DNA from: a virus
Lineage: Duplodnaviria; Heunggongvirae; Uroviricota; Caudoviricetes
Strand: one strand, 5' to 3'
IMG/VR virus record: IMGVR_UViG_2600255005_000006
Length of the DNA: 15,637 nucleotides
Below the pieces are notes generated by a model. That model worked only from the letters and a program-made list of their open reading frames with translations. It was not told the DNA's origin and searched no databases. The position numbers and the translations under genes are program-made. The first letter of the stretch is position 1, and the number at the start of each line of letters is the position of its first letter. Shown here one piece after another: positions 1 through 15,637 of this stretch.

Positions 1-579
1 TTACAACGATTTGGCCGCCGGACCGTGATAACCGCACTCATCGCCGCGATAGGTCCAGGTGCAGGTGTTGGCCAGCATGATACGTCCCGGAAAAACAGCG
101 CCGTCCGTTTCCGTCGACGTGGCCAGTACAAAGGAGGCACTGACCGCGCTCAGTTCGCTGCACTGCTCGATGCGCCAGTGGCTGATCACCTCCTGCTCCG
201 GATCGGCGTCGCTGTTTCCGTTGACGAAGTTCACCGCATCCAGAAAACGGGCGTAAACCTTACGCCTGACCACCGTTCCGCCGACCAGACTCTGCAGGTC
301 TTCCGCCATCCCGGTGACCATGCCGTGCAGGTTAGAAACCGTCAGTGTCGGACGGGCAGCACTGCCCTTGCCGTTCAGTTCAAATCCCGTCCCCTGAATG
401 GGATATGCCTGATACTGCCGCCCCTGCCAGGTAACCGGCTCACCTCTTTCATTCTGCTCATTGCAGAAAAAGTAGCGATCCCCGCCTACCTCTGTCAGGT
501 CGATTTCCCAGAGCACCACGCTGGCCGACTGCTCCGCCCGAATGCATTCATTCAGTGTTTCCTGTTGTATGTCCTGCAT
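1..579 (-). CDS. Minor tail protein L (lambda gpL-like), 192 aa, C-terminally short and divergent
   Basis: Translation MQDIQQETLNECIRAEQSASVVLWEIDLTEVGG... is near-identical to lambda gpL as I recall it, up to ...TWTYRGDECGY, then ends HGPAAKSL with a stop at nt 1-3. ATG at 577-579. Confidence 0.85.
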   Translation of the reverse strand: MQDIQQETLNECIRAEQSASVVLWEIDLTEVGGDRYFFCNEQNERGEPVTWQGRQYQAYPIQGTGFELNGKGSAARPTLTVSNLHGMVTGMAEDLQSLVGGTVVRRKVYARFLDAVNFVNGNSDADPEQEVISHWRIEQCSELSAVSASFVLATSTETDGAVFPGRIMLANTCTWTYRGDECGYHGPAAKSL

Positions 580-583
580 CAGA

Positions 584-916
584 TCACCACTTCGTCAAAC
601 TGACACGAAAAATCGGTATAGGTGATATGTTCTGTCGCTGACCACGTTCGACACACCACTCTGATTTTTCTGTTAATACCCGGCGGGCGCCAAAAAAAGA
701 TTTATAGCCTTCATGCCGGGCTAAAAATTTTTCAAATGAATCACGTTCATTCGCCTCAACTTTGAAATCACAGGTAAAAACGCGCAGAGAATGATTAAGT
801 CCATTTGGACTTCGTTGCTCATAACCATCGCCAAGTCTTACAATTTTTATCGATGGTTTATTTTCTGTTTTCATTCCATCCTCTGGTAACCAGTGAAATT
901 CTTCCGTATTAGCCAC
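584..916 (-). CDS. Minor tail protein M (Phage_min_tail family, distant lambda gpM homolog)
   Basis: 110 aa; motif [16 protein letters not shown]...[14 protein letters not shown] aligns with lambda gpM VRFGDGYSQRAPAGLN...LESFLEEHGGWKSF. GTG start at 914-916 overlaps the tape measure stop; SD GGGGGA 8 nt upstream. Confidence 0.8.
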
Positions 917-3900
917 TTAACATTCCCCCATCACGTCGCATATTTAACAGAGTGCCCTGCACCCGCTGATCAACCATCCCCATAAGTGCTTTTATTGCCT
1001 GAGGGCCAACCTCTCCATTCTGGCCGTCATTTTGAATAGTGATTTGGTATACAGGGGCATAGGTAATATCTCCGCCTCCATTACCACTTTTACTATTAAT
1101 AGCTCTGACACCAAGAGAACCATCGGAAGTTCGTGTTAATGGCATAATGGCTTCCGGTCCAGCCTCACCAAAAACACCCGCCCCTTTTGCAAAAGCAAAA
1201 AATTGCGGGGAATCATAAATACCGTTCGAATACGTGCTCAATGACGGAGACTCATAAACACCGCCCTTTGCATTCGGAATAAATTTACTAATAGCACTCC
1301 CGATAGTTCCTAAAATCCCCCCAGAAGAACTGTTACTAATGCTGTCGAAAATCCCAGTAATTGAAGCCTTTAATGCTATTCGACTAAGATCCGAAATCAC
1401 GGAAGTAGCGAAAGAACGAAAATTTGCCTTGCCTGTCGTGACAAAATCACCCAGCGCATCGGTCATCCCATCAAACATCTGAGTCGTGGTTGATTTTATC
1501 TGCTCACTGATATCCTTAGTGTCATCCAGCCAGTTATTGAATCCCTGGGAGGCACCACTAACCCAGTCTCCTGCCTGAATATCGACCTGCTCGTTTTTCT
1601 GTCTGACAATTTCTTTTTCTCGTTCCAGAGCATCATTCAGAGCCTGCATTTTCTCCTGAAAAACATGATCTGACATTCCACGGGATTTATCTGCATAGTC
1701 ACGTTCAAGTTGCAGACGCTGGTTGTTATATTCACGTTCAATCCGCAGTAATTCCTGCTGACGTTGCTGATTTTTATCGCCAAGCCCATAACCAGCAATC
1801 TGAATATCATACCCCTGCTGACGATTATCAATCGAAGCCTGCAATGAATCACGCCATGCGGCTATTTCGGTTGATTCCTTGATTAGCCTGTTATTTTTTT
1901 CAATCGCAACATTTTTCTCCATCAACGCGGTTATTTCTTCCCGGTGTAAGAGAAGCGATTTCTGATCCTGGGTTAATTTCGATGACGGTCGTGACTCCAG
2001 GTCGGCAATCTGCTGACGCCACTTAACCAGTTCCTGTTCAGAGGAACTTAATTTAACGGTCAATTCAGCTTGTGAACTTAGTAACGCATTCTGTTGATTC
2101 AGATGATCAATCATTCGTTGGGCAGCATCATCCGAATAACCTTTCGCCTTTGGTAGCTTTGGATCTTTATAACGCTCATTTATTTGAGCGACAAGATTAT
2201 TATATTCTTCCTTTGAATACTGACTCTTTAGCTTTTCCAGTTTTGCAAGTTCACTGGCTCTCTGCTGCTCCCGGGTCTGATATTGTTTTGAAAAGGCATC
2301 TGCTTTCTGTCTGAGTTCAATTCCTTCCTGTTGTCGCTTGTTGTAATCGGTTATTGATGAATTTAGTACGTCCTGAGCAATTTTTTCTGCTTGAAGTACG
2401 CCCAATTGCTGCTTTAATCGTGCCAGCCTTTTATTTTGAGCGCCGCCATCCCCAATGCCACCTAACCCGAAAGCTCCGGGTCGGGTATTTTTTTCTATTT
2501 CATCAATTTGATGGAGAACATCTGAGATTTTTTGATCAAGGGAGGCATCACGACCAATATCCAGCATGGAATCCCATGCCCATTTTGCGGACTCAGCGAC
2601 AGCTTTCCATGCAGTCTCAAGATAACCAAGATTTTCTTTAATCTGGTTGGTGCGCTGGATCATTGAGGATGAGTATGCTTCTGTCGCAATGCGGGCGGCC
2701 TCCTGCTGGTTCCCTTCATCCTGTAGCGCCTTAATCTGGTTATAAGTCGCAATTGTCAGAAAATGGTACTGATCATTAAGTTTTGATATGGCACTGACAG
2801 GATCCTTTGCAATTTCATTGAAGTCATTAACCAGTTGTTCGGTTGATATTCCTGTTACTTCGCTCGTTTTTACTATCGCTGTCGTCACTTGCTCCAGCGA
2901 ACTGCTCGCTACCTTTCCCGAACGCACAAGCTGGTTTAATACTGCCGCCGCAGCGCCAGTTGTCGAATCAGCCGCATTCCCGGCACGTTGAGCTATATCG
3001 GCCAATTGCCCGCTGGTTGTCCCCAACTGATTTCCGGTAAGAATAAGAGATTTATTAAATTCGTCCTGCTCCTGAGAGCCTTTATAGTAAGCCAGCCCTA
3101 AGACGCCAACGGCTGCTGCGGCCAGGGTAAAAGGATTAATTAATCCCAGCACATAAGAACCAACACCTTTGATCGCCGGGCCAATCCCACCGAACATATC
3201 TTTTAGCTGGCCGCCCTGCTGCATTAACACCATAAAAGGCGACTGACCAGTGGACAACCCAACAACAATATCCGTCATTTGTGCAGGCAACATGCGCATA
3301 GCAAAAGCCGTTTGTTTTGCCGACATTCCGGTTTTGCTTAATTGAGATTGAGTAACCTCAAGCTCACTCCGCATAGCACGAAGTTTTCCAGAAAGTTCCT
3401 CATACATTTCAGGAGAGAGCATCCCCTTAGCTTTTGCTTCATTGAGCTGTTTCTGTTGTTCTACCAGACGATTAAAAGCAGTTCCGACAGGGTCAAGTTG
3501 AGCAATCAGACGTTGCAAAGCAGCAACCTGTTCATCATGCGCTTTTGCTGCTTCTCGCTCTGCCTGAGCCTCTCCGGTAAGCTCTCGCCGTGTTTCCTGT
3601 ATTTTTCGGCTATAATTCTCAAACTGAGAACCATTTATTTTCCCGGATGCAAACGCAGCATTAAGTTCATCCTGCTGTTGTTCAAGATTTCTTAGCGCCG
3701 CAACCAGAGGGTCGATCTTGTCCAGCATTCTTTGAAAGGCCTGAGCCTGCGATTCCTGCTGGGCGGCAGCAAGTTTTCCGGCCTTCTCGGCTTCTCTCTG
3801 CGCTTGCGCAACCCCGCTCAATTCCTCTGTGGTTTCATTAAGTTTACGGACAAGAAATTCATATTCTTCTTTATCAATAAGCCCTTTATCGAAAAATTTC

Positions 3901-4142
3901 TTTAATTCAGAATAGCGTCGACCGACAGTATCAATTGCGGCACCAACTGGATCAATAGCTGCTTTTAATTTTGCGAGCGCGTTCTTCTCATCTTCTGTTG
4001 CCTTAGTCACTTTCCCTGCGCTATTTGCAGCAGTTTCCCCGGCCTGCGTCATTTTGACTAATGAGGAGGTCAGATTGTCAGCATTATTTTTTGCTCCAGT
4101 GCTATCAATAATTATTGCGAGACGCGAGGTTTGCTCTGCCAT
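909..4142 (-). CDS. Tail tape measure protein (gpH-like), 1077 aa
   Basis: Very long ORF between chaperone and M genes; coiled-coil-rich N-terminal half, hydrophobic glycine-rich central segment, C-terminal region typical of tape measure proteins. ATG at 4140-4142 with SD GGAG 9 nt upstream. Confidence 0.9.
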
Positions 4143-4165
4143 TTATTAAAACTCCAGACAACAAA

Positions 4166-4185
4166 AAGCCCACCGAAGTGGGTTT
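4166..4185 (-). terminator. Terminator-like hairpin (CCCAC-UUCG-GUGGG followed by CUUUUUGUUGU) just upstream of the tape measure start
   Basis: Read on the minus strand in the 128-bp gap between the T-like ORF and the tape measure gene; short GC stem, UUCG tetraloop, U-run. Confidence 0.3.
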
Positions 4186-4270
4186 CAGGCGACATAATAG
4201 TAGATATAGCGATTACGAGGCCACGCAATGCTTTTCTCCAGGAGCATCATCGATTTAATTAAAGACACCA

Positions 4271-4540
4271 TCACATCTCTGTAACAGAGTGTACGTAATT
4301 AACAACTACACACACTGCTCCTGAAAATAACTGGTCATCCAGTGCAAAGATCACTGCTTCAAACTCATCGCGCTCAATCAATACCGGATGAGTGGCTAAA
4401 TATTCATTTATCTCTGTCAGAGATATAGGCAAAGGCACCCCGGTCATTCCAGCATAACGTCGGGCACGGGATATTACCGAATAGGCGTACAACAATTCCT
4501 TAAGCACCGGGTCTATTTCTGGTTCCGGTATCGGTGGCAA
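4271..4540 (-). CDS. gpT-like tail assembly chaperone extension segment; no credible own start, in frame with the G-like ORF behind its TAG stop
   Basis: The ORF-track start is TTG with no SD. The frame stays open from the G stop (4613-4615) to 4271 (113 sense codons). Position between chaperone and tape measure matches the G/GT arrangement. Confidence 0.45.
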   Translation of the reverse strand: MPPIPEPEIDPVLKELLYAYSVISRARRYAGMTGVPLPISLTEINEYLATHPVLIERDEFEAVIFALDDQLFSGAVCVVVNYVHSVTEM

Positions 4541-4612
4541 CCTGAGTTTTTCTCGCTTCCATCTTGCCTTTTCCCCCTTTCTCCCCGAACTCCGATAACC
4601 ACCGCTGGGCGG

Positions 4613-4627
4613 CTATGGCTTTTTTAT
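4613..4627 (-). promoter_or_regulatory. Putative -1 programmed frameshift signal: slippery heptamer A_AAA_AAG (4625-4619) two codons before the TAG stop, followed after 6 nt by a stem-loop (4612-4599)
   Basis: Zero-frame reads AUA AAA AAG CCA UAG; downstream CCGCC-CAGC-GGUGG can form a 5-bp hairpin. The heptamer is the same as the one I recall at the E. coli dnaX frameshift site. Confidence 0.4.
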
Positions 4628-5074
4628 CGTATCCTGCTTCTGCAGCTCTTTACCCTGGGCGATGCTGGCTGCTTCTGCAAGGATCTGCCAGTACAACTCT
4701 GGATTCTGCTTAAGCAGCGCGATCCCTCGTTCTGGCGTATATTCCAGTGCAACCTCAGCACCATTAACCAGTTCACCAACCCCTTTCCAGTCTTTCAGCA
4801 GATAACGAGCAGCATTATCAATGAGTAAATCATCAACAGAATCTACCTCGGAAACCTTTGAAATATCAAACTCCTTCGTTCCGACGTGCAAACTGGCATC
4901 CATTTTCTCAATGTGACGACGGATTAATGCATTACGGGAGCGATACTGATCGTTATCGCTGCTTGCCACCAACAGTTTTAACCCGTCTACAGGTTTTAAG
5001 TCCTTCATTGGCGTAAACCAGCGTTCTCCACCGATGATAATTTTCTGATTAAGAATAAACATCCATAACCTCAT
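4613..5074 (-). CDS. Tail assembly chaperone (gpG-like by position), 153 aa
   Basis: ORF immediately downstream of the major tail gene and upstream of the tape measure gene; ends in a slippery heptamer. ATG 5072-5074 has SD AGGGGG 8 nt upstream; alternative ATG at 5060-5062 has SD GAGG. Confidence 0.7.
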   Translation of the reverse strand: MRLWMFILNQKIIIGGERWFTPMKDLKPVDGLKLLVASSDNDQYRSRNALIRRHIEKMDASLHVGTKEFDISKVSEVDSVDDLLIDNAARYLLKDWKGVGELVNGAEVALEYTPERGIALLKQNPELYWQILAEAASIAQGKELQKQDTIKKP

Positions 5075-5083
5075 TCAATGCGT

Positions 5084-5110
5084 CCCCCTGTAGTGCAGTA
5101 CCACAGGGGG
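5084..5110 (-). promoter_or_regulatory. Strong stem-loop (about 11 bp) between the major tail and G-like genes that sequesters the G-like gene SD
   Basis: Minus-strand RNA CCCCCUGUGG-UACUGCACU-ACAGGGGG; the 3' arm contains the AGGGGG SD for the ATG at 5074; no U-run follows. Confidence 0.35.
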
Positions 5111-5122
5111 AATAACGGAAAA

Positions 5123-6085
5123 TCAACTAATCGCATCAGCACTGGCTTTTGCGATCACGGCAGTCGGGGAGCATTTTTTTCTGGTTATCGTAGGTGCTTC
5201 ATCTGCTGCGGTAATGCTCAATTGAACCTGGATAATGTCAGTATTACCCCCATCAGGCCATTCACCTGACACCTGAACCTTCGGGAAACTGAAAGTGTAT
5301 GCCCCCTCTCCATTCGAAAGCGTGAAGCTGAACGGAACTGTTTCTCCAGTCAGTGTTTTACTCCAGATTTCCCACGCGGCTTTAGACCATGAAAGCGTCA
5401 CCGTACCGGACGGTGTAAAAGTAGTCGGAATATTTGCTCCTGCATAAGGCGAGCCAGTCCCGATACAACGCTGTGTCTGGAGTTTGTTATCGAACTGAAT
5501 ATCAAAACTGTCGATACAAAAACCGTTACCTCCGGCAACACCATTCAGGCTTACTGCTGAAACCTCCTTAAACGAATAGCGTAACTTTCCTGCACTATCC
5601 ACAGGTTCGCCTTTGATAAAATTCGTATCATCGGCCTTTGATTCCCAGCCCAGCCCGGCAAAGGTTACGGTCGCTGTAATATCGCCGTCGTTAGGGATCT
5701 GCATTTTCCATGAGCCAACCTGCGCTCCTCTGACGACAGAGGCAATTCCGACATCGGACGCATAGGTCGCCAGAGAAAATGTTATTCGCTCATTCCCCAT
5801 TGTCAGAGAATCGCCTGACCATTCCGCGCCGAAACAGGATGCAAGAAAATCATCATGTTGACCCCAGCGAAATTTGGTACCAACATCACCGCCGACATCC
5901 ACAGTGCCAGGCGTCGCCCCCTGAGCCATCCGGGAGCCACCAATCTCATTATTTTCGCCTTTATTCTGGGTGGGTTTTACTCCCCAGCTTGTGCGTTTTA
6001 ATAAACTCCAGTCACCACTTGCTGGCGTAGTGCCTGCAACTGTCTCCCGGATAAATGCCGAGATAACCTTTGCACCTGAACTCAC
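5123..6085 (-). CDS. Major tail (tube) protein, 320 aa
   Basis: Position between tail terminator and chaperone genes. GTG start at 6083-6085 with SD AGGAGG 5 nt upstream. Confidence 0.8.
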   Translation of the reverse strand: MSSGAKVISAFIRETVAGTTPASGDWSLLKRTSWGVKPTQNKGENNEIGGSRMAQGATPGTVDVGGDVGTKFRWGQHDDFLASCFGAEWSGDSLTMGNERITFSLATYASDVGIASVVRGAQVGSWKMQIPNDGDITATVTFAGLGWESKADDTNFIKGEPVDSAGKLRYSFKEVSAVSLNGVAGGNGFCIDSFDIQFDNKLQTQRCIGTGSPYAGANIPTTFTPSGTVTLSWSKAAWEIWSKTLTGETVPFSFTLSNGEGAYTFSFPKVQVSGEWPDGGNTDIIQVQLSITAADEAPTITRKKCSPTAVIAKASADAIS

Positions 6086-6111
6086 AGGAGCCTCCTATGT
6101 CATTAATTGCG

Positions 6112-6504
6112 CTAGAGCGCGCGATATGGAATTTGAAGATTAAGCTGGAACCAGCCATTCTTTTCGCCGACGGCTATTGAGGAAACAGCCTGGTAACTGA
6201 GACGATCGTCATCCTGAAACTCAAACAGTTCCCGCAATTTATCGGCTGTCTCAGTAATGAGTTTTGAACCAGAACCTGCGGGGACAAATAACTGAATAAT
6301 GATTATCCCCGTGCGATAAACAACCGGCCCCGCGCCAATTTCATTAACTCCAGCCTGCCCGGGAATATTACTTAACCGCGCCCAGATTAACTTACCGGAA
6401 GGATCGAACGTTGGCGCGTTCGGATACAATACGTCTTTTCCATCAATAATCGTCTGTGCCGTCATTCTGGAAATAACCGTATTTCTGATTTCAGTAAACG
6501 TCAT
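6112..6504 (-). CDS. Tail terminator / tail completion protein (gpU-like by position), 130 aa
   Basis: Small ORF directly upstream of the major tail gene; its ATG overlaps the previous stop (ATGA). Confidence 0.55.
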   Translation of the reverse strand: MTFTEIRNTVISRMTAQTIIDGKDVLYPNAPTFDPSGKLIWARLSNIPGQAGVNEIGAGPVVYRTGIIIIQLFVPAGSGSKLITETADKLRELFEFQDDDRLSYQAVSSIAVGEKNGWFQLNLQIPYRAL

Positions 6505-6881
6505 TTGTAAGCCTGTAAAACACCATGAAAAGCGTTGGCATACACGCCAGTTGGCGCTTGTTGTGAATGACCGTTTTCAAGAGCCTCTGCATAAGGAAGG
6601 TTATTCTGGATATAAATAACTCCGTAATTTGCAGCTTTCGAAATAACCCCGATCCCACGCTGAACAGCAATCGTACCGTTCGGATCCACGTTATCAGATA
6701 TACCAAAATCGGGATGCTGTAACGACACCAGGTTGTTATTTCTGAAACGTCCGGTATCAACCGGAGCAGCAATATCAATAGCAGTAAGAATCTGAATAGC
6801 GATGTAGCGAATCTTCAGCCCTACATCTTCCTCAATCATCCCGGCAAATATTGACGGTTCTATATCCCATGCCTTTGCCAT
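6501..6881 (-). CDS. Neck protein (HK97 gp10-like by position), 126 aa
   Basis: SD AAGGAG 7 nt upstream of the ATG; the previous gene's stop abuts the start. Family assignment is from memory and position, not a search. Confidence 0.55.
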   Translation of the reverse strand: MAKAWDIEPSIFAGMIEEDVGLKIRYIAIQILTAIDIAAPVDTGRFRNNNLVSLQHPDFGISDNVDPNGTIAVQRGIGVISKAANYGVIYIQNNLPYAEALENGHSQQAPTGVYANAFHGVLQAYK

Positions 6882-7265
6882 TTACGCTCTCCTTAACTGG
6901 ATAGAGTAAACTGATGCGGAAGGATCTACACTTGCTGTAATTACCTCGTATCGTTGTAACTGCCTTGATACAGGATCATAAATCTCAATAATATGGTCGA
7001 CAGCTGGTTTATCCGTAACCTCGCATACCAGAGCGGTTAATTTAAGGTCACCATGCAAAATATTAATCCCATCAATTCTGCCCAGCTTATAACGTGTCAA
7101 CACGCCTCGCCCGGTATAGATTTCGGTGGATTCGCCGCCAGTTTCCGTCACAGGATCCCAGTGCCGGTGCGTAACGTAAGAACCAGAAAAATCACTCACG
7201 GCGTCCGCTAAATCCTCATCAAAAGCAGCGGCAACCTCTGACTGAATCTCTTCACGAAGCCCCAT
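6882..7265 (-). CDS. Head-tail joining / head closure protein (by position), 127 aa
   Basis: ATG overlaps the preceding TAA (TAATG); G-rich SD. Function inferred from synteny only. Confidence 0.5.
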   Translation of the reverse strand: MGLREEIQSEVAAAFDEDLADAVSDFSGSYVTHRHWDPVTETGGESTEIYTGRGVLTRYKLGRIDGINILHGDLKLTALVCEVTDKPAVDHIIEIYDPVSRQLQRYEVITASVDPSASVYSIQLRRA

Positions 7266-7660
7266 TATCCCCCCCTCACAACCCTGACTTGTGAGCGACT
7301 AAGTCCGTACGGTTTCAGCAGTGCTATCGCAAGCTGTAAATCGGGTTCAAGCAATGCAGTGCTGTTTGCTGGCAACTCAGAAAATGATTTCGATACACTG
7401 ACCCCGTCAGCCGACACGGCTTTACTGATAACAACGCCAGAATCATTTTTCTGCTGAAACAACTTACCGAATGAGGCAATTCTGGCTGCATATGCTCCCG
7501 CAAGTTTTACCTCTTCCGGAATACGGGATGGGTTAATTTTCAGGTTGAAGCCATTAAGCCAGGCATTAGCCATTAAAACAGCTTTATTTTTAGCGTTCTC
7601 ACTCGTCCAGGCGTTCCCAAACGCATTATCAACGTCATCACAGGTCACGTAAGTGATCAT
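7265..7660 (-). CDS. Head-tail connector / head completion protein (by position), 131 aa
   Basis: ATG at 7658-7660 with SD AGGAG 8 nt upstream. Function inferred from synteny only. Confidence 0.5.
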   Translation of the reverse strand: MITYVTCDDVDNAFGNAWTSENAKNKAVLMANAWLNGFNLKINPSRIPEEVKLAGAYAARIASFGKLFQQKNDSGVVISKAVSADGVSVSKSFSELPANSTALLEPDLQLAIALLKPYGLSRSQVRVVRGG

Positions 7661-7663
7661 GTG

Positions 7664-7840
7664 TTACTCCTGAGTTTTCCAGCCCATAGCCTTCCAGTTG
7701 TCAACTTCATCAGGATGAACATTAGCGATAGTTGGTGCGCCGGGAAACATCTGATAATCGGTCACCATAACCACTAACTCAATTTGCGTTTTTTGTGCGG
7801 CTTCACGCTGTGCTCTTTGCTCTTTAGTTAATCCGGCCAT
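7664..7840 (-). CDS. Small hypothetical phage protein, 58 aa (absent from the ORF track)
   Basis: Hand translation MAGLTKEQRAQREAAQKTQIELVVMVTDYQMFPGAPTIANVHPDEVDNWKAMGWKTQE; ATG at 7838-7840 preceded by a G6 SD; its TAA overlaps the SD of the next gene; fills the capsid-connector gap. Confidence 0.4.
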   Translation of the reverse strand: MAGLTKEQRAQREAAQKTQIELVVMVTDYQMFPGAPTIANVHPDEVDNWKAMGWKTQE

Positions 7841-7857
7841 ATGCCCCCCATTAAAAA

Positions 7858-7876
7858 TGGGGCCGAAGCCCCGTTT
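7858..7876 (-). terminator. Intrinsic terminator-like hairpin 10 nt after the major capsid stop (GGGGC-UUCG-GCCCC followed by AUUUUUAAU)
   Basis: Read on the minus strand; likely a partial terminator raising capsid relative to downstream expression. Confidence 0.4.
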
Positions 7877-7882
7877 GAATGT

Positions 7883-9022
7883 TTAACCAAGAATCAGACA
7901 ACCATGTGCCGGCTTCACTGATGAAACACCCCATGCCAGTCCAACTTCATAGCGCACCTGGCGATACTGACGATACAGTGCAATCTGGAACGTAATCCCT
8001 GAAATCGGGTCCGTAACATTCATTACATCATCAGCATTATCGCCACCTTCCGGCATTGCCGGAGTACGGGATGCCAGCAGAAACGCGTTGCGATCAAACG
8101 CCATATTTGCAGTAAAGGAGCCAACAACTGTGATTGCAGTATCATCGGCCAGATCCTGACGCAGTCCGGGCGCTGCAAGAGTAATCAGATTGCTGGTCGC
8201 TGCTGCCACAACATACTGATTCGGATCGCCAGCGAACGTAACAATCTGACCTGCAGAAATACTCCCCGAACCAGTATCAATGGAAATAAGAACATCGCCT
8301 TCTTTTTTCTCGCCATTCACGAGATAACCAGTTGCAGCAACCTTTGGCGCTCGTTTTACACCTGCCGAACTGTGAATATTGAATCCCTCCAGACGCCCCA
8401 ACACGCCCTCACGCAGTAGCTGTTCAGTGCCGGATTCATTCACTTTAAACAGTACAGACTGTTTTCCGCGCAAATTAGCAATGGCAGTGGAGCCAAGCAC
8501 CATCTGCAGATCGGTTGTCGGTGCGCCGTTATCCTCCAGAACCTGACGAGCCAGAGCAGCATCAGAAAGATCATCTTTAACACCAAACGGCGTTGTCCCT
8601 GCGGTTCCCACGGCGCGGGAAGCACCGAAATACAACGCACCAAGATCAGCCTCAACCTCGTTTGCAAGGGCGCGAAAAGCCTGCTTGAACTGATCAGCCA
8701 GAATGGTGTTGTAAGTCCCTGAAGGGCCAAGAGCCAGTTGTTCTTCACCATTCCATTTAACCGGTGCCATTTTGGATTTAGTAATTTTCACATCAACAGT
8801 GCCAATATTTTGATCACCGGTATTCGGAGCTGACGGCCCCGGTACGATATCTTCGGTTTTCGCCTCAGGCGCAACTGGCGCGGTTACCGTCTGATCTTTT
8901 GCTGCGGCGTCAGCTTTTGCGTTTTTTGCTACCGCAGGGATAAAACCTACCTGCTCACGGGATACAATATCCAGGGCGGTATAAATAGTCGGGATCAACC
9001 CGGTCAGGGTATTTCCAGCCAT
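7883..9022 (-). CDS. Major capsid (coat) protein, 379 aa
   Basis: Large ORF downstream of the scaffold-like gene and upstream of the neck genes; ATG at 9020-9022 with SD AAGGA; followed by a terminator hairpin. Confidence 0.85.
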   Translation of the reverse strand: MAGNTLTGLIPTIYTALDIVSREQVGFIPAVAKNAKADAAAKDQTVTAPVAPEAKTEDIVPGPSAPNTGDQNIGTVDVKITKSKMAPVKWNGEEQLALGPSGTYNTILADQFKQAFRALANEVEADLGALYFGASRAVGTAGTTPFGVKDDLSDAALARQVLEDNGAPTTDLQMVLGSTAIANLRGKQSVLFKVNESGTEQLLREGVLGRLEGFNIHSSAGVKRAPKVAATGYLVNGEKKEGDVLISIDTGSGSISAGQIVTFAGDPNQYVVAAATSNLITLAAPGLRQDLADDTAITVVGSFTANMAFDRNAFLLASRTPAMPEGGDNADDVMNVTDPISGITFQIALYRQYRQVRYEVGLAWGVSSVKPAHGCLILG

Positions 9023-9121
9023 AATTAAATATTCCTTAAAAATTTGCGTAATTAGTGAATAGATGGAGTAATGAGCTATCCAGCCCTGACACCAGCTCCC
9101 ATCCGGAAGCTGACAAATGTG

Positions 9122-9886
9122 TTAATCAACAATTGTGATACCGTCTTTCAATGCGTTTTGCTTACCTGCAACATCCAGTGCATCAAAAGCAGAGCGTTTC
9201 ATCGTTTTCTGACCAACATCATGCTGTGTCGGACGGGAGCCGCCGCCATTGTTGCCACTGGCTTTCAGGATGTAGTCTTTCTGAGGGTAATTTTCGACGA
9301 GGAACTCCAGCACCTCATCAAACTGCGCCAGTTCGCCAGGCTTCGCGCGGGAATAAATTTTGTTGCCGGAAGCGTCATAAGCAACGATCTTCCCTTCTTC
9401 CACTTTGAATGCCTGCCCGAAGCGGGCTTGTAATAAATCTGCCGGGATCGCAATTTTATCGGCAATATATTTTGAACCCGCAAAACTACCGCCAATCATA
9501 GAATCGTAAAGCTGCGTCTCCAGCATCTGAGAGCGTTGCTTTTCTTCATCTAATTGCTGCTGAAAATTTTTCGTAATTTCTGCCTTAACCTGGTCAACCT
9601 GTCCCGCATCGATCAGCTTTTTCTGGTCGATTTTTGACAGCATTTCCAGTGCCTCGATCGCCTTCTTCGGGTCTTCGATAGCGGCAAACTTAGCCAGTTT
9701 TTCCTCTGCAGCTTCTTTAGCCAGGCGATGATTTTTTGCCTCGCCATTAAGCTCTGTAATTTTTTTTATCGCCAGCGGTGCATCGAAGCCGATTTCTTTA
9801 CCATCGTCGTGCACATAAACTGGCAGGCCAGCAGTATCAATTTCTGCGTATTGTTTTCCGTTAATCTCGACCGTTTTCAGTTTCAT
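9122..9886 (-). CDS. Putative capsid scaffolding protein, 254 aa (start MKLKTVEINGK)
   Basis: Acidic, helix-rich ORF between the MuF-like and capsid genes. The ORF-track GTG extension to 9958 is rejected because it runs through the upstream terminator hairpin. Confidence 0.5.
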   Translation of the reverse strand: MKLKTVEINGKQYAEIDTAGLPVYVHDDGKEIGFDAPLAIKKITELNGEAKNHRLAKEAAEEKLAKFAAIEDPKKAIEALEMLSKIDQKKLIDAGQVDQVKAEITKNFQQQLDEEKQRSQMLETQLYDSMIGGSFAGSKYIADKIAIPADLLQARFGQAFKVEEGKIVAYDASGNKIYSRAKPGELAQFDEVLEFLVENYPQKDYILKASGNNGGGSRPTQHDVGQKTMKRSAFDALDVAGKQNALKDGITIVD

Positions 9887-9940
9887 ATTAGTACCTGGTT
9901 TAAGTCTTCCGACAGTTACGCTGCTCACCATCCGGATCGC

Positions 9941-9970
9941 AGCAATAAAAAAGGCCACCCGAAGGTAGCC
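9941..9970 (-). terminator. Intrinsic terminator between the MuF-like and scaffold genes (GGCUACC-UUCG-GGUGGCC followed by UUUUUUAUU)
   Basis: 7-bp GC-rich stem with one mismatch, UUCG tetraloop, U6 run, read on the minus strand. Confidence 0.5.
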
Positions 9971-9990
9971 TGTTGTAATAAATGATTTAT

Positions 9991-11017
9991 TTAAATCCCT
10001 GCTTTTCTGAATACCTGTGCATCACGCTCACGGAGTTGCTTCAGCGTCAGCCATTCGCCTTTATCGGTGTAAAATTCATCTGGCGACATACCGCCATCCC
10101 GAATCAGCTTTGCCCGGGTTTCCCCCACAATCTGTTTTTGTCTGGTGTAAGGCTGACGCAAAAACCATTCCCTGTAGGTTGTATCTCCGGCCACCACGCC
10201 ATCCATGCTGGCCCGCTCAGCCGGGGAAATATCACGAACATCAATACCCAGTTCCTTCGCTGATTTCAGAATGAACGTTTCCGTTGAGCGGCAGCAGAAA
10301 TGAATTTTTCCCGGCCCATGCAAATAAGGCACACTGTGACCTACAGGTTTATTATCCAGCGTATATTTGAGGCGATCCCTGATTCGACATTGTGGCGTAG
10401 TACGATTATCAAGCGTTGATAACCATTGCTTACCCTTAATCAAATCATTATTCGCGCTGGCAAAACTCTCACGGGCAGTAGCAGCAAGATGTCCAACCGC
10501 TGTTTTTGCAATGCTGGCCGCATTAGCCCGGCTCATCTGCAATGCACCATCCTGAAATCCCTTGCTGACATGTCCCCGAATTTTTCTTGCGATCTGCTCA
10601 TTGGTATCCCCCAGCAAAAAACCCTGACGCACCGTATTTGTTATGCGTCTGAGCCGATCCGCCTCAAGATCCAAGGCCCACTCACTGAGCAGTCGTCCCT
10701 GGAATGGTCGCGCCATTGCAGCGGCGTAAAGTGCATCAAGAAGATATACCAACCAGAGGGTGAACATCAGCAACAAAATCAGGTAGCAGAGAATCAAACA
10801 GACTTAACTGATAACCAGCCTCATAAATTGCCAGCTCGTTCAGCTCTCCGGAGAGACTGGTAAACATGCTGTTAATAGCAGCGCGGTTAACCTCTCTGAC
10901 ACTCGCCAGAAGTGACTCCAGGCGCGTAACGGTAAAACTACCAGGATCGAGGCTGTCCAGTGCTACCAGCAGGCGAGCTGTAAGCTCCGCATCGCTGTCA
11001 TTCAGTATTTTCACCAT
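9991..11017 (-). pseudogene. Head morphogenesis protein, Phage_Mu_F / SPP1 gp7 family, split by a +1 frameshift into an N-terminal ORF (10736..11017, 93 aa) and a C-terminal ORF (9991..10797)
   Basis: The C-terminal part carries a MuF-like motif WLSTLDNRTTPQCRIRDRLKYTL...HFCCRS. The N-terminal ORF has ATG at 11015-11017 with SD GAGG. The frames overlap over 10736-10797; the in-frame ATG at 10714-10716 has no SD. Combined length about 335 aa fits the family. Confidence 0.65.
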
Positions 11018-12885
11018 TCTGGCAGCCTCGCCAGTTGCCTGAAGCGGTATGTGGTTTCCGTCGTCCTGGCCGTGCTGACCAGCCGCTCACTGCCGTCATC
11101 CGCTGCCACGGTCAGGCGAAGCATAAAGCTCCCCCCCTTCACCACCTTCGGCGTGTCCCAGCGCGCCAGCACCTGGTATTCCCCGCTGTCTGCGGTGACT
11201 TCTGCAGTCAGGTGCTGCACCGCGGGCGGCGTGACACCGTTCACCGTTCCGCTCTGGTCGCCGTCAAAGTACGCCCCGTTATCCACGATGGCTTCTTTCT
11301 CCGGTACATGCTGCACGGCAGTGATGGCATACGTGCCGTCATCGTTCTCACGGATACTCACACAGCGGAACAGGCGCTGGCGCAGCATCGGCAGCTTCAG
11401 CCCCCACACGCTGTATCCGGCAACGCCGTCAGGAACACGGCTCACTTTCACCTTCACACCGTCGGTGACGGACTGGACCTCCACGCTGACCGGATTCCCC
11501 TGCCCGTCAACCAGGCTTATCAGCGTGGTGCCGGAGGATGGCAGCGTGATTTCACGGTCGAGCGTCAGCGTCCGGGTCTGGCTGTTCACCGCCAGCACAC
11601 GCCCACCGATGCTGATACCGGCATAGTCATCATCGCAGATTTCAATGACATCCCCCGGTACATGGCGAAGCCCTTCAGCACCCACGCTGAAGTCCACGGT
11701 CTGCGTTTCCAGCAGCTCCGTTTTAATCAGCCACAGCCCGGCGCGGTGTGCCTGCCCCCGACTGGTACAGCCAAAGGCATCCATCTTCGTGACGTTACGG
11801 CCGTAACGGGCAATGGCCTGCGTATCCTCCACGAGCTCTGTCGCCGTCTCCCAGCCGTTGTTCGGGTCAATCCAGTTCACCTCAACGGCATTATGGCGGT
11901 CCTTCAGGGCGCTGAAGCTGTAGCGGAACGGCGCGCCATCATCCGGCATCACCACATTACTGCGGTTATAGGTCCACACCTTATCTGATGGTCGGTCCTG
12001 CACGAACGTCAGCGTCTGCCCGTTCCATACCGGCATACAGCGCATCGCCGAGCAGAAATCACTGAGCACATCCCACGCCTTGCGCTGTGTGGTCAGGTAC
12101 GCATTACAGGTGATGCGCGGCTCCGTGCCGCCAAAGCCGTCCGGCACTGACTGGTCGCAGTACTGGCCGATGACATACAGCGCCCATTTATCCACATCCG
12201 CCGCACCAAGACGTTTCCCCATGCCGTAGCGCGGATGGGTCAGCATATCCCACAGACACCAGGCCATGTTGTTGCTGTATGCCGGTTTAAACGTTCCGTC
12301 CCAGATACCGCTGTATTGCCGCGTCTGCGGGTTATAATTCGACGGCACCTGCAGAATACGCCCGCGCAGATGATAATTACGGCTCACCTGCTGACTGCCG
12401 AACTGCTCCGAGTCCACCTGCACGCCGACCAGTGCCGTGTTCGGGTAGCACTGTTTCACATCGATAATTTCGGTGTATGACGACCAGAGCGTTTTGTTCT
12501 GCAGCTGGTCTGTGGTGCTGTCCGGCGTCATCCTGCGCATCCGGATACTGAACGGGCGCGGCGGCAGGTTATCCACCACCACCGAGGCCAGATACTGTGA
12601 AGTGGTTTTACCCTTAATGGTGATGTCTTTTTCCGTCACCCAGCCACCGTTACGTTGTATCTGAACCAGCAGGCGGACTTCCGATGGATTCCTGTCCCCC
12701 TTTGAGGTGGTTTCCACCAGTGCCTGCACGCCGAAAGTAAAACGCAGACGGTCAATGTTTGCCGACGTGATGGTCCGGGTGATCGGCGTGTCATATTTCA
12801 CTTCTGTACCGAGCACCGTCTCGGAGCCGGAGGATTCAAATCCCTCCGGCGGTGTCTGCTCCTGCTCACCGGCCCGGAACACCAC
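11011..12885 (-). pseudogene. Internal fragment of lambda-like host specificity protein J (roughly lambda residues 55-690); lacks its N-terminus and C-terminal receptor-binding region
   Basis: Translation VVFRAGEQEQTPPEGFESSGSETVLGTEVKYDTPITRT... is near-identical to lambda gpJ as I recall it. Homology runs upstream to about 12927 (SEGNTNISGVT) and ends at about 11025 (RFRQLA, then RLPEW-stop versus lambda LGNYRL). Confidence 0.9.
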
Positions 12886-12929
12886 CGTGACGCCGGATAT
12901 ATTGGTATTCCCCTCACTGCCCGATAGGG

Positions 12930-13340
12930 TTGGCGGGTGGGCTAAACTTATACCAATACGCGCCGAATCCGCTGGGGTGGATTGACCCGTTAGGACTTAA
13001 ATGCTGGAGTTCGGCCAGACGTGATTACTGGAAAGCAGAAGCTAAAGCAGCGCCAAAAGGCATGTATTCATCCGTGAATATGTTAAGAATGCGTTTTGGT
13101 CTTGCTCCAAGAATTCGAGTTAAAGAATTCCATTTTAAAACAGGTACAGAAAGAATAAGAAACGTATCGCTAGAACTAAACCATCGTCATTGGCCTCAAC
13201 GCGATGGTAAGCATGTTGATATTCCATATAACCTTGAGAAAGTGACGCCCTGGGAACATGCAGCTAAAGATCCCTATAGACATCCAGGTAGTACGTTACT
13301 TGAAATACTACAAGACATTGGAAACTATAAGGGGTTTTAA
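12930..13340 (+). CDS. Orphan Rhs C-terminal toxin tip: Rhs core-end motif (PIGLAGGLNLYQYAPNPLGWIDPLGL) followed by an HNH/colicin-DNase-like domain of about 110 aa; no bona fide start codon
   Basis: Rhs PxxxxDPxGL boundary motif at 12921-12998. Downstream ELNHRHWPQRDGKHVDIPYNLEKVTPWEH resembles the colicin E9 HNH motif [28 protein letters not shown]. In-frame stop at 12888-12890; AT-rich codon usage. Confidence 0.65.
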   Translation: MAGGLNLYQYAPNPLGWIDPLGLKCWSSARRDYWKAEAKAAPKGMYSSVNMLRMRFGLAPRIRVKEFHFKTGTERIRNVSLELNHRHWPQRDGKHVDIPYNLEKVTPWEHAAKDPYRHPGSTLLEILQDIGNYKGF

Positions 13341-13341
13341 A

Positions 13342-13722
13342 ATGAGACTGGCTGAATTTATGCAATCTGATATTTATGTTGATTTTCTTAATGACTTGGA
13401 TAAGTCTCTTTCAGAAAAGATAGATAGAAAATCAAAGGTTTATGATGTTGTTGTTAACCTTATGGAAAAATGGTTGGAATATGCCTCGATGTCTTTTGAT
13501 GATTTGCATTGGGTTATATCAAATTGCAGGTCAGATTCAATAAGTTACATTGTAAAAAAACAAGTTACTTATACAGAGGCTAATGGTGGGAAAGATAATA
13601 TCATCAATCAAGCGCCTAAGATAAACTTCCCTATTGGTCATCTGATAGAGTATTATTTATTATCGAAAAGACCGAACGATTTGCTTGATTATGTGAACAA
13701 AAATTCGGATTCCCGGTTCTAA
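13342..13722 (+). CDS. Putative cognate immunity protein, 126 aa
   Basis: ATG 1 nt after the toxin TAA with SD AAGGGG 7 nt upstream; very AT-rich; followed by a terminator. Function inferred from the toxin-immunity gene arrangement; no recognisable family. Confidence 0.55.
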   Translation: MRLAEFMQSDIYVDFLNDLDKSLSEKIDRKSKVYDVVVNLMEKWLEYASMSFDDLHWVISNCRSDSISYIVKKQVTYTEANGGKDNIINQAPKINFPIGHLIEYYLLSKRPNDLLDYVNKNSDSRF

Positions 13723-13782
13723 GAAATATGTAAAGGAAATTGGGAAAATATTTTCTGAAATAAAATATTCATAATTTAAATG

Positions 13783-13816
13783 GCCGGGGAGAAAATCAAA
13801 TCTCCCCGGCTTTTTT
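13783..13816 (+). terminator. Rho-independent terminator (CCGGGGAGA-AAAUCAAA-UCUCCCCGG followed by UUUUUUAUUU), shared by the convergent immunity and SymE-like genes
   Basis: 9-bp stem with U6 on the plus strand; the SymE-like stop codon (13819-13821) sits in the T-run; the minus-strand side is followed only by an A/U-rich tract. Confidence 0.6.
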
Positions 13817-13818
13817 AT

Positions 13819-14145
13819 TTAATTATCTTTCAGCACTTCCCACATCCCGCTTTTTATTCCCTTCACCACCCGTTTAACCTGATAAAGTTCCTCCCGCAGT
13901 TCCTGTACCTCGTCACTGTCAGCGATGATGGTCAGGCACCCCTCCGAAATCTTCACCGTCACACCCCGCCCGGTATCAAATCCGGCTTCTTTCAGCCAGT
14001 CGCCCTTGAGGTGCAGGCTGGGGTGTTGTGAATAATACCGGGCTATACCGGTTGTGCGGTCCTGGTGGCGGGCTCTGACATAGCCGACTTTATAGCGGCG
14101 CTGTGTTTTGGAAATGACGTCCGCATTACTGTCGTTCTGCGGCAT
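13819..14145 (-). CDS. SymE-family (type I toxin-antitoxin, AbrB-fold) toxin homolog, 108 aa
   Basis: LHLKGDWLKEAGFDTGRGVTVKISEGCLTIIA aligns with E. coli SymE [32 protein letters not shown] as I recall it. ATG at 14143-14145 chosen; the ORF-track extension to 14325 is antisense to the PTS gene and rejected. Confidence 0.7.
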   Translation of the reverse strand: MPQNDSNADVISKTQRRYKVGYVRARHQDRTTGIARYYSQHPSLHLKGDWLKEAGFDTGRGVTVKISEGCLTIIADSDEVQELREELYQVKRVVKGIKSGMWEVLKDN

Positions 14146-15637
14146 TATGTTAGGGATTGGTAGTTCCCTGAGTAGCCATGATGTCATCACCCTCATCCCG
14201 GCATTGGGTAACCCCGTGTTGCAGGCTATCTTTACCTGGATGAGTAAAATTGGCTCGTTCGCTTTTAGCTTCCTGCCGGTGATGTTCTGTATTGCGATCC
14301 CGCTTGGTCTGGCACGTGAAAACAAAGGCGTAGCGGCGTTCGCTGGTTTCGTAGGTTATGCGGTGATGAACCTGGCGGTTAACTTCTGGTTGACCAATAA
14401 AGGCATTCTGCCAACCACCGATGCAGCTGTTCTGAAAGCCAATAACATCCAGAGCATTCTTGGGATCCAGTCGATCGACACCGGGATCCTCGGTGCGGTG
14501 ATCGCCGGTATTATCGTCTGGATGCTGCATGAGCGTTTTCATAATATCCGCCTGCCGGATGCGCTGGCATTCTTCGGCGGTACGCGCTTCGTGCCAATTA
14601 TCTCCTCGCTGGTGATGGGGCTTGTCGGTCTGGTGATTCCGTTAGTCTGGCCGATTTTTGCCATGGGTATTAGCGGCTTAGGTCATATGATCAACAGCGC
14701 GGGTGATTTCGGACCTATGCTGTTTGGTACGGGTGAACGTCTGCTATTGCCGTTTGGTCTGCATCACATTCTGGTGGCATTAATTCGCTTTACTGACGCG
14801 GGCGGCACGCAGGAAGTCTGTGGACAAACCGTCAGCGGCGCACTCACCATCTTCCAGGCGCAATTAAGCTGCCCGACCACTCACGGTTTCTCTGAAAGCG
14901 CCACGCGTTTCCTCTCCCAGGGTAAAATGCCTGCGTTCCTCGGCGGTCTGCCAGGTGCTGCATTAGCCATGTATCACTGTGCTCGCCCGGAAAACCGTCA
15001 TAAAATTAAAGGCCTACTGATTTCTGGCCTGATCGCCTGTGTTGTTGGCGGCACCACCGAACCGCTGGAGTTCTTGTTCCTGTTCGTAGCGCCAGTTCTC
15101 TACGTCATCCACGCGCTGTTAACCGGCCTCGGCTTCACCGTCATGTCTGTGCTCGGTGTCACCATCGGTAATACCGACGGCAATATCATCGATTTTGTGG
15201 TGTTCGGTATTTTGCATGGCCTGTCGACTAAGTGGTACATGGTGCCAGTGGTGGCGGCAATCTGGTTTGTCGTTTACTACGTCATCTTCCGTTTCGCTAT
15301 CACCCGCTTCAATCTGAAAACACCGGGTCGCGACAGTGAAATCGCCAGCTCAATCGAAAAAGCCGTTACCGGTGCGCCGGGTAAATCGGGTTACAACGTT
15401 CCGGCAATCCTCGAAGCCTTAGGCGGTGCCGACAATATTGTCAGCCTGGATAACTGCATTACCCGTCTGCGTTTGTCAGTGAAAGATATGTCGCTTGTTA
15501 ATGTGCAGGCGCTAAAGGACAATCGGGCAATTGGCGTAGTACAACTTAATCAACATAACCTGCAGGTTGTTATCGGGCCGCAAGTTCAGTCAGTAAAAGA
15601 CGAAATGGCTGGTCTGATGCGTACTGTTCAGGCATAA
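14108..15637 (+). CDS. malX: PTS EIICB component, glucose/maltose family (malX-like), 5'-truncated by about 20 codons relative to canonical EIICB N-termini
   Basis: IIC domain then IIB domain with active-site motif NCITRLR; aligns along its length with E. coli PtsG but is longer (at least 509 aa versus 477), fitting MalX (about 530 aa). In-frame stop at 14093-14095; only TTG 14108 or ATG 14114 available as starts. Confidence 0.8.
   Translation: MEMTSALLSFCGIMLGIGSSLSSHDVITLIPALGNPVLQAIFTWMSKIGSFAFSFLPVMFCIAIPLGLARENKGVAAFAGFVGYAVMNLAVNFWLTNKGILPTTDAAVLKANNIQSILGIQSIDTGILGAVIAGIIVWMLHERFHNIRLPDALAFFGGTRFVPIISSLVMGLVGLVIPLVWPIFAMGISGLGHMINSAGDFGPMLFGTGERLLLPFGLHHILVALIRFTDAGGTQEVCGQTVSGALTIFQAQLSCPTTHGFSESATRFLSQGKMPAFLGGLPGAALAMYHCARPENRHKIKGLLISGLIACVVGGTTEPLEFLFLFVAPVLYVIHALLTGLGFTVMSVLGVTIGNTDGNIIDFVVFGILHGLSTKWYMVPVVAAIWFVVYYVIFRFAITRFNLKTPGRDSEIASSIEKAVTGAPGKSGYNVPAILEALGGADNIVSLDNCITRLRLSVKDMSLVNVQALKDNRAIGVVQLNQHNLQVVIGPQVQSVKDEMAGLMRTVQA

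Follow-up and report, generated by a model that had tools for sequence, protein, structure and literature searches.

Orphan rhs-CT/rhsI modules (C-terminal displacement; Salmonella, PMC3967940) are the closest described counterparts of the toxin cassette analyzed here, which, like them, consists of a short core-end and a variable tip followed by a small AT-rich candidate immunity open reading frame (ORF). Those modules lie downstream of a full-length rhs gene, whereas the present one forms a 1,196-bp island between a fragment of a phage J gene and a truncated malX. The locus can also be set beside repeat-induced contig breaks and unmarked joins in draft pseudo-molecules, with which it shares ends at repeat or cassette borders, scrambled and flipped neighbors, errors clustered at an end, and chimeric ORFs found in one record only; it differs in having no Ns or linkers and in showing short overlaps at some joins. 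Cryptic prophage remnants, such as Rac and Qin of Escherichia coli K-12, contain truncated tail genes, keep their gene order, and accumulate substitutions. The locus resembles these remnants in placing truncated lambdoid morphogenesis genes beside chromosomal genes, but its pieces have lost their natural order, with one of them flipped, and are near-identical to intact prophages (1 substitution in 11 kb).

The stretch of DNA analyzed (15,637 bp; hereafter the window) is part of AEMF01000001.1 (GCA_000208585.2), a single 4,463,584-bp "contig" of Escherichia sp. TW11588 (E. ruysiae). The published description gives the strain of AEMF01000001 as TW11588, a soil isolate of cryptic clade IV from Puerto Rico. 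A first-pass annotation of the window had noted that a J fragment (J') and an Rhs toxin tip abut head to head, and had attributed this to inversion, deletion, or illegitimate recombination, with an assembly chimera as a fallback. We conclude, with a probability of roughly 0.72, that the join consists of the abutted ends of two separately assembled contigs, placed together with no gap marker, and is not a biological breakpoint.

Results and discussion

The head-to-head abutment was borne out. Homology to J on the minus strand ends at 12922, Rhs homology on the plus strand starts at 12920/12921, and megablast together with translation of both strands of positions 12,870 to 12,960 confirmed two unrelated, divergent fragments with zero intergenic DNA. 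The coordinates shifted slightly, from ~12927 to 12919-12922 for the end of J and from ~12921 to 12920/12921 for the start of Rhs. When a continuation of homology through the join was looked for, neither J nor Rhs homology was found to cross it. The end of the J homology and the start of the Rhs homology have CCC in common (12920-12922); the overlap is thus CC or CCC (2 to 3 nt), with a chance expectation of roughly 1/16 to 1/64, and the search for short microhomology at the junction returned this overlap only, which is within chance. No IS ends and no direct or inverted repeats were found flanking the join. GC content is ~0.59 in J' and drops to 0.31-0.40 where the toxin and immunity sequences lie.

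On the left of the join, J' (11029-12922, minus strand) is an internal piece of a lambda-type tip attachment protein J gene, spanning nt 159-2052 of 3498 (~aa 53-684), with the J gene of E. coli F5 as the coordinate reference (window position 12922 is J nt 159, and 11029 is nt 2052). In a megablast search of 5,426 complete E. coli genomes, J homology ran on the minus strand from 11029 to 12919-12922, and identity in the final 223 nt reached 99.6%. The fragment carries the Pfam domains FNIII-A_GpJ, Phage-tail_3, and Ig_J, and it is not full length: a complete J has ~1,160 aa, and both ends are absent here. The claim that each of the two fragments lacks its 5' portion needs correction on two points: J' is missing its 3' end as well, and the truncation of Rhs was not made by the junction but is the normal edge of an orphan. 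J' is 99.2% identical to J of E. coli MB06172.

On the right of the join, the Rhs piece is an ordinary, if rare, orphan tip-immunity-symE cassette. The orphan tip (12921-13340, plus strand) comprises a core-end (12921-12998; PIGLAGG...DPLGL) and a 113-aa toxin domain, and its plus-strand translation reads PIGLAGGLNLYQYAPNPLGWIDPLGL followed by the 113-aa tip. The core-end motif PxxxxDPxGL is present directly before the variable C-terminal domain and aligns with the main rhs and the orphans of E. coli SCU-111, and homologues of the tip are annotated as RHS repeat-associated core domain proteins. The YD-repeat shell and the N-terminal region are absent; as in native orphans, the cassette begins at the core-end. 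The toxin domain (12999-13340) is rare, its best homologues being partial Rhs ends of 85-87% identity (a Salmonella partial protein and an ENA metagenome protein), and a search for the same tip in the sister strain OPT1704 or other E. ruysiae gave no homologue above 87% identity. Its match to Pfam Tox-HNH-HHH (E = 0.028) is below the cut-off; judged from its sequence, it is possibly an HNH/EndoVII-type nuclease. The source record does not annotate the tip ORF as a gene.

Directly 3' of the toxin lies a candidate immunity gene (13342-13722, plus strand; 126 aa; ~31% GC), with position and low GC content as expected and no family match; the exact 126-aa sequence occurs on AEMF01000001 alone. A terminator-like hairpin (13763-13830) separates the convergent immunity and symE genes. 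The latter, symE' (13819-14116, minus strand; type I toxin family; Pfam SymE_toxin, PF08845, 9.9e-22), has lost ~32 nt at its 5' end, where the native sequence is replaced by malX antisense sequence. A full-length Rfam match to the isrA sRNA (13949-14077, plus strand; 115 bits against a gathering threshold of 51) lies antisense within symE. No full-length rhs gene was found near the cassette in the 34 kb of the record examined, whereas relatives do have one; a displaced contig would be expected to have no full-length rhs beside it.

The left edge of the cassette was compared with native contexts. Rhs homology starts at 12921 against SCU-111 and at 12920 against E. ruysiae-type orphans, and this base is the first Rhs-derived base in eight native contexts (2 SCU-111 orphans and 6 E. 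ruysiae-type contigs), in all eight of which the orphan is preceded by a xerC spacer ending ...GATCGTYCCGATGAY. An independent E. ruysiae draft contig of 1,254 bp (JBBUKW010000027), which holds a different tip-immunity-symE set, has this same base as its first. The chance of a random break landing on the native orphan edge within ±3 nt is of the order of 10^-3, whereas an assembler that breaks where a multi-copy module gives way to a variable cassette would routinely reach that edge. The two SCU-111 orphans are similar through the core-end, which weighs against a contig join; that TW11588 has a repeat border precisely at 12920 is thus no more than plausible. On the right, homology to the Rhs locus stops at 14116, 19 nt into a 5' portion of symE conserved throughout the references, and the SCU-111 border between variable and conserved sequence maps to ~13783, not 14116; the strong edge coincidence is thus confined to the left edge. 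Contig ends of more distant orphan cassettes were also compared, and their boundaries were uninformative.

In SCU-111 (NZ_CP051727, 2.427-2.447 Mb), orphan tips at the ansP-yddH (rhsE) locus alternate with symE-HTH-primase-xerC modules, and a conserved spacer ending ...GATCGTYCCGATGAY stands directly before the core-end sequence CCGATAGGG, as it does at other loci. The SCU-111 relatives of the cassette lie behind vgrG-dcrB-rhs at ansP-yddH, and a similar arrangement is present in a Logan contig. The XerC-type recombinase family is widespread in Enterobacterales (Salmonella, Erwinia, Pectobacterium, Photorhabdus, and Xenorhabdus). Most homologues of the recombinase are found on contigs of 2-7 kb, which indicates that such loci regularly fragment in short-read assemblies. 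The symE-HTH-primase-xerC modules are possibly integrative elements by which Rhs tips are delivered or displaced.

A recombinase of this type could itself have moved the cassette ectopically, by recombining the spacer/core-end site with a pseudo-site in J, and we regard this as very improbable. That the left edge of the cassette is exactly the conserved spacer/core-end boundary and that the family is widespread beside such cassettes in Enterobacterales both speak for it; against it, no recombinase gene was found in the 34 kb examined, J at the join reads CTCACTGCCC/AGCACC, with no resemblance to the native ...CCGATGAY/CCGATAGGG, the right-hand malX' join and the other joins would be left unexplained, and site-specific activity at the spacer/core-end boundary would itself have to be assumed. 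Equally improbable is the wider reading that orphan tips bounded by ...CCGATGAY/CCGATAGGG are mobile units moved by the adjacent XerC-type recombinase, one of which landed in a prophage J. A xerC module of TW11588 was also sought as a reciprocal contig end, and recombinase searches gave 0 matches on the 4.46-Mb record.

The join itself was found in TW11588 only. None of the 5,426 complete E. coli genomes (0/5,426; megablast) spans it, a 32-mer across it is absent from species-representative genomes, and the J'/CCCGATAGGG join was found in no other assembly. The chimeric ORFs of the neighboring joins (J', 624 aa; L', 192 aa) occurred on AEMF01000001 alone in exact-protein look-ups, through which no Logan assembly of TW11588 was found.

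The DNA in and beside the window is similarly discontinuous, with at least five abrupt joins in ~17 kb, in the order autotransporter', fragment B, fragment A, J', Rhs cassette, and malX'. Fragment B is an 880-bp piece that lies mostly to the left of the window, where only its last 14 nt fall (1-14), and it covers L nt 566-699, K, and the first ~86 nt of I; in our extract of the record, it occupies L091:10566-11424 (record position 4,181,8xx), including window positions 1-14. The ORF called on it runs antisense to K, and Pfam gave no match for it. Fragment A (15-11027, minus strand) is a lambdoid/Rac-like prophage block with L nt 1-565, M, the tape measure, tube, capsid, and DUF6651 genes, and a minor head gene from whose 5' end ~70 nt are missing. 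In the phage reference, A ends at 903 and B starts at 904, so the two are flush natural neighbors, yet B is inverted, and its other end adjoins the terminator of the autotransporter gene. MB06172 is the best-matching genome for fragment B (97.1%) as well as for J', and these two pieces match an MB06172-type tail-tip module best, yet J' lies on the wrong side of A. Fragments B, A, and J' look like parts of one L-K-I-J cluster with wrong order and orientation and ~780 nt missing, namely J nt 1-158 together with the 3' end of I.

No target-site duplication was found around the inverted B. IS-mediated replicative inversion of B was considered and rejected, given the flush 903/904 contact of A and B and the missing target duplication. 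An apparent 14-nt overlap of A and B in BLAST was a chance match to the terminator hairpin. Single bases that fit neither partner stand at two joins, a T at 11028 between the minor head gene and J' and an A at 14117 between symE' and malX'. The A-B join has a 6-nt similarity (CGGCGG), and the join of the minor head gene to J' has one of 6/7 nt (C[A/G]CCAGT). Both exceed what random abutment predicts and were counted against a contig join; they fit either microhomology-mediated joining or software that merges short end overlaps.

Prophage remnants and rhs loci are known as recombination-prone regions. Illegitimate, microhomology-mediated recombination could accordingly have fused J nt 159 directly to the start of an orphan rhs tip, as one of a series of deletions, inversions, and translocations in TW11588. 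The deposited sequence is continuous, the 2- to 3-nt overlap is compatible with end joining, longer microhomologies stand at the two nearby joins, and the recombination-prone character of such loci also favors a genuine junction. It is nonetheless quite improbable: a random break would have had to hit the native edge (±3 nt), further independent events would be needed for the inverted B, the misplaced J', the symE'-malX' join, and the cpdB flank, all of them necessarily recent in view of the match to OPT1704, where they are absent at malX, and nothing comparable occurs in the 5,426 E. coli genomes. The inversion, deletion, or illegitimate recombination proposed in the first-pass annotation is therefore unsupported, with no independent occurrence of the join, no significant microhomology, and an Rhs edge that is a repeat/cassette boundary. 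Its fallback, an assembly chimera, is favored instead, the junction lying within a run of scrambled short fragments in a low-quality pseudo-molecule.

The outer flanks derive from distant parts of the chromosome. To the left of the window (10 kb examined), ytfB-fklB-cycA-ytfE..cpdB are followed by an autotransporter fragment and its terminator; to the right of the cassette lie malX'-malY-add-ydgJ-cnu-ydgK-rsx. On the K-12 map, we take the cpdB-side flank to lie at ~4.43 Mb and the malX-side flank at ~1.70 Mb, both in K-12 plus orientation, and flanks from these two positions in like orientation rule out a single inversion as the producer of the arrangement. A 227-aa autotransporter beta-domain ORF (L091:11425-12141) lies just ~230 nt from the start of cpdB and is ~67% identical to an E. 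coli autotransporter of the ECSE_1600 family. The autotransporter fragment left of B may be another truncated contig end.

At the right of the window, malX' (14118-15637, plus strand) lacks nt 1-74 and has an extra C 3 nt inside the join. In the sister strain and type strain OPT1704 (E. ruysiae), uidCBA-uidR-hdhA-malI-malX is intact. The TW11588 malX is 93.6% identical to that of E. coli and, apart from indels, identical to that of OPT1704. A simple insertion into malX was rejected, since window nt 1-14 are unlike the malX sequence preceding the break. From malX to rsxC (9.4 kb; L003:10777-20219 versus L011), TW11588 and OPT1704 differ by 0 substitutions and 7 one-base indels, of which one is 3 nt from the symE'-malX' join and another splits rsxC (L003 19029). 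Indels with almost no substitutions are typical of pyrosequencing drafts. The same pattern is seen in fragment A, where comparison with an E. coli Yu5 prophage over 11 kb shows 1 substitution against 6 single-base indels, several of which fall in homopolymer runs, and in denser form in fragment B, where 9 indels in 885 nt amount to ~10 times the indel density of fragment A. The error pattern also shows that pieces of differing quality were combined.

Instead of contigs with no physical relation, the pieces could represent a real, scaffold-level adjacency in a decayed region, with a multi-copy element (e.g., an IS) dropped between each pair; the truncations would then have arisen biologically, through IS-mediated deletions or inversions, and the zero-length spacer alone would be artefactual. 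Order and orientation could in that case derive from paired reads. Assemblers may leave filled one-base gap placeholders, which the single unassignable bases at 11028 and 14117 conjecturally resemble. Because malX is single copy, a contig break at its nt 75 needs a cause, such as an inserted repeat, and the TW11588 assembly is ~190 kb shorter than that of OPT1704, both of which would also suit a dropped repeat. This reading would, however, need five IS-bounded events in 17 kb despite 0 substitutions against OPT1704 over 9.4 kb, B has no target-site duplication around it, none of the joins retains an IS remnant, the native orphan edge of Rhs is not what a random IS insertion would recreate, and the flanks come from ~4.43 and 1.70 Mb of the K-12 map in like orientation. 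We consider it unlikely.

The reading as abutted contigs follows from the limits of the fragments, the scrambled neighbors, the indel errors, the intact malI-malX of OPT1704, and an Rhs edge that is both a native edge and an independent contig end. The 2011 draft genome of TW11588 is an error-prone, low-quality pseudo-molecule, and we infer that AEMF01000001 is a concatenation of contigs, although no Ns or linker sequence were found in the 34 kb of the record examined. The two contigs would have been set side by side when the draft became a 4.46-Mb pseudo-chromosome, presumably with no read spanning 12920-12922. Both pieces are DNA of a multi-copy or mosaic type, which assemblers tend to break where repeats end: the left one is the conserved middle of a lambdoid J gene, and the right one the variable tip-immunity-symE part of an orphan rhs cassette, whose conserved neighbors are a xerC spacer on its left and symE-5'/HTH/primase on its right.

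Unmarked contig joins in old pseudo-molecules call for caution, as they can pass for rearrangements and can leave false truncations, fusions, and singleton proteins that persist in databases; in the present record, J' (624 aa), L' (192 aa), a SymE whose start derives from malX, and a MalX of 496 aa are examples of such false products. Were the join real, it would represent a rare instance of an Rhs toxin cassette leaving its locus.

The comparisons also yielded observations on strain and phage relatedness. TW11588 (soil, Puerto Rico) and OPT1704 (feces, international traveler) have no substitutions across the 9.4-kb backbone; the reported within-clade average nucleotide identity is ~98.9% (PMC8346766). 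The tape measure protein of fragment A recurs, with identical sequence, in >500 blocks of the protein collection. At 10736-10797, the minor head (Mu F-like) gene falls into two overlapping ORFs, and an extra A relative to Yu5 at 10738 coincides with the split, which is therefore probably a sequencing error. That fragment A and the prophage of E. coli Yu5 are a single substitution apart in 11 kb implies that E. ruysiae and E. coli exchanged phages very recently.
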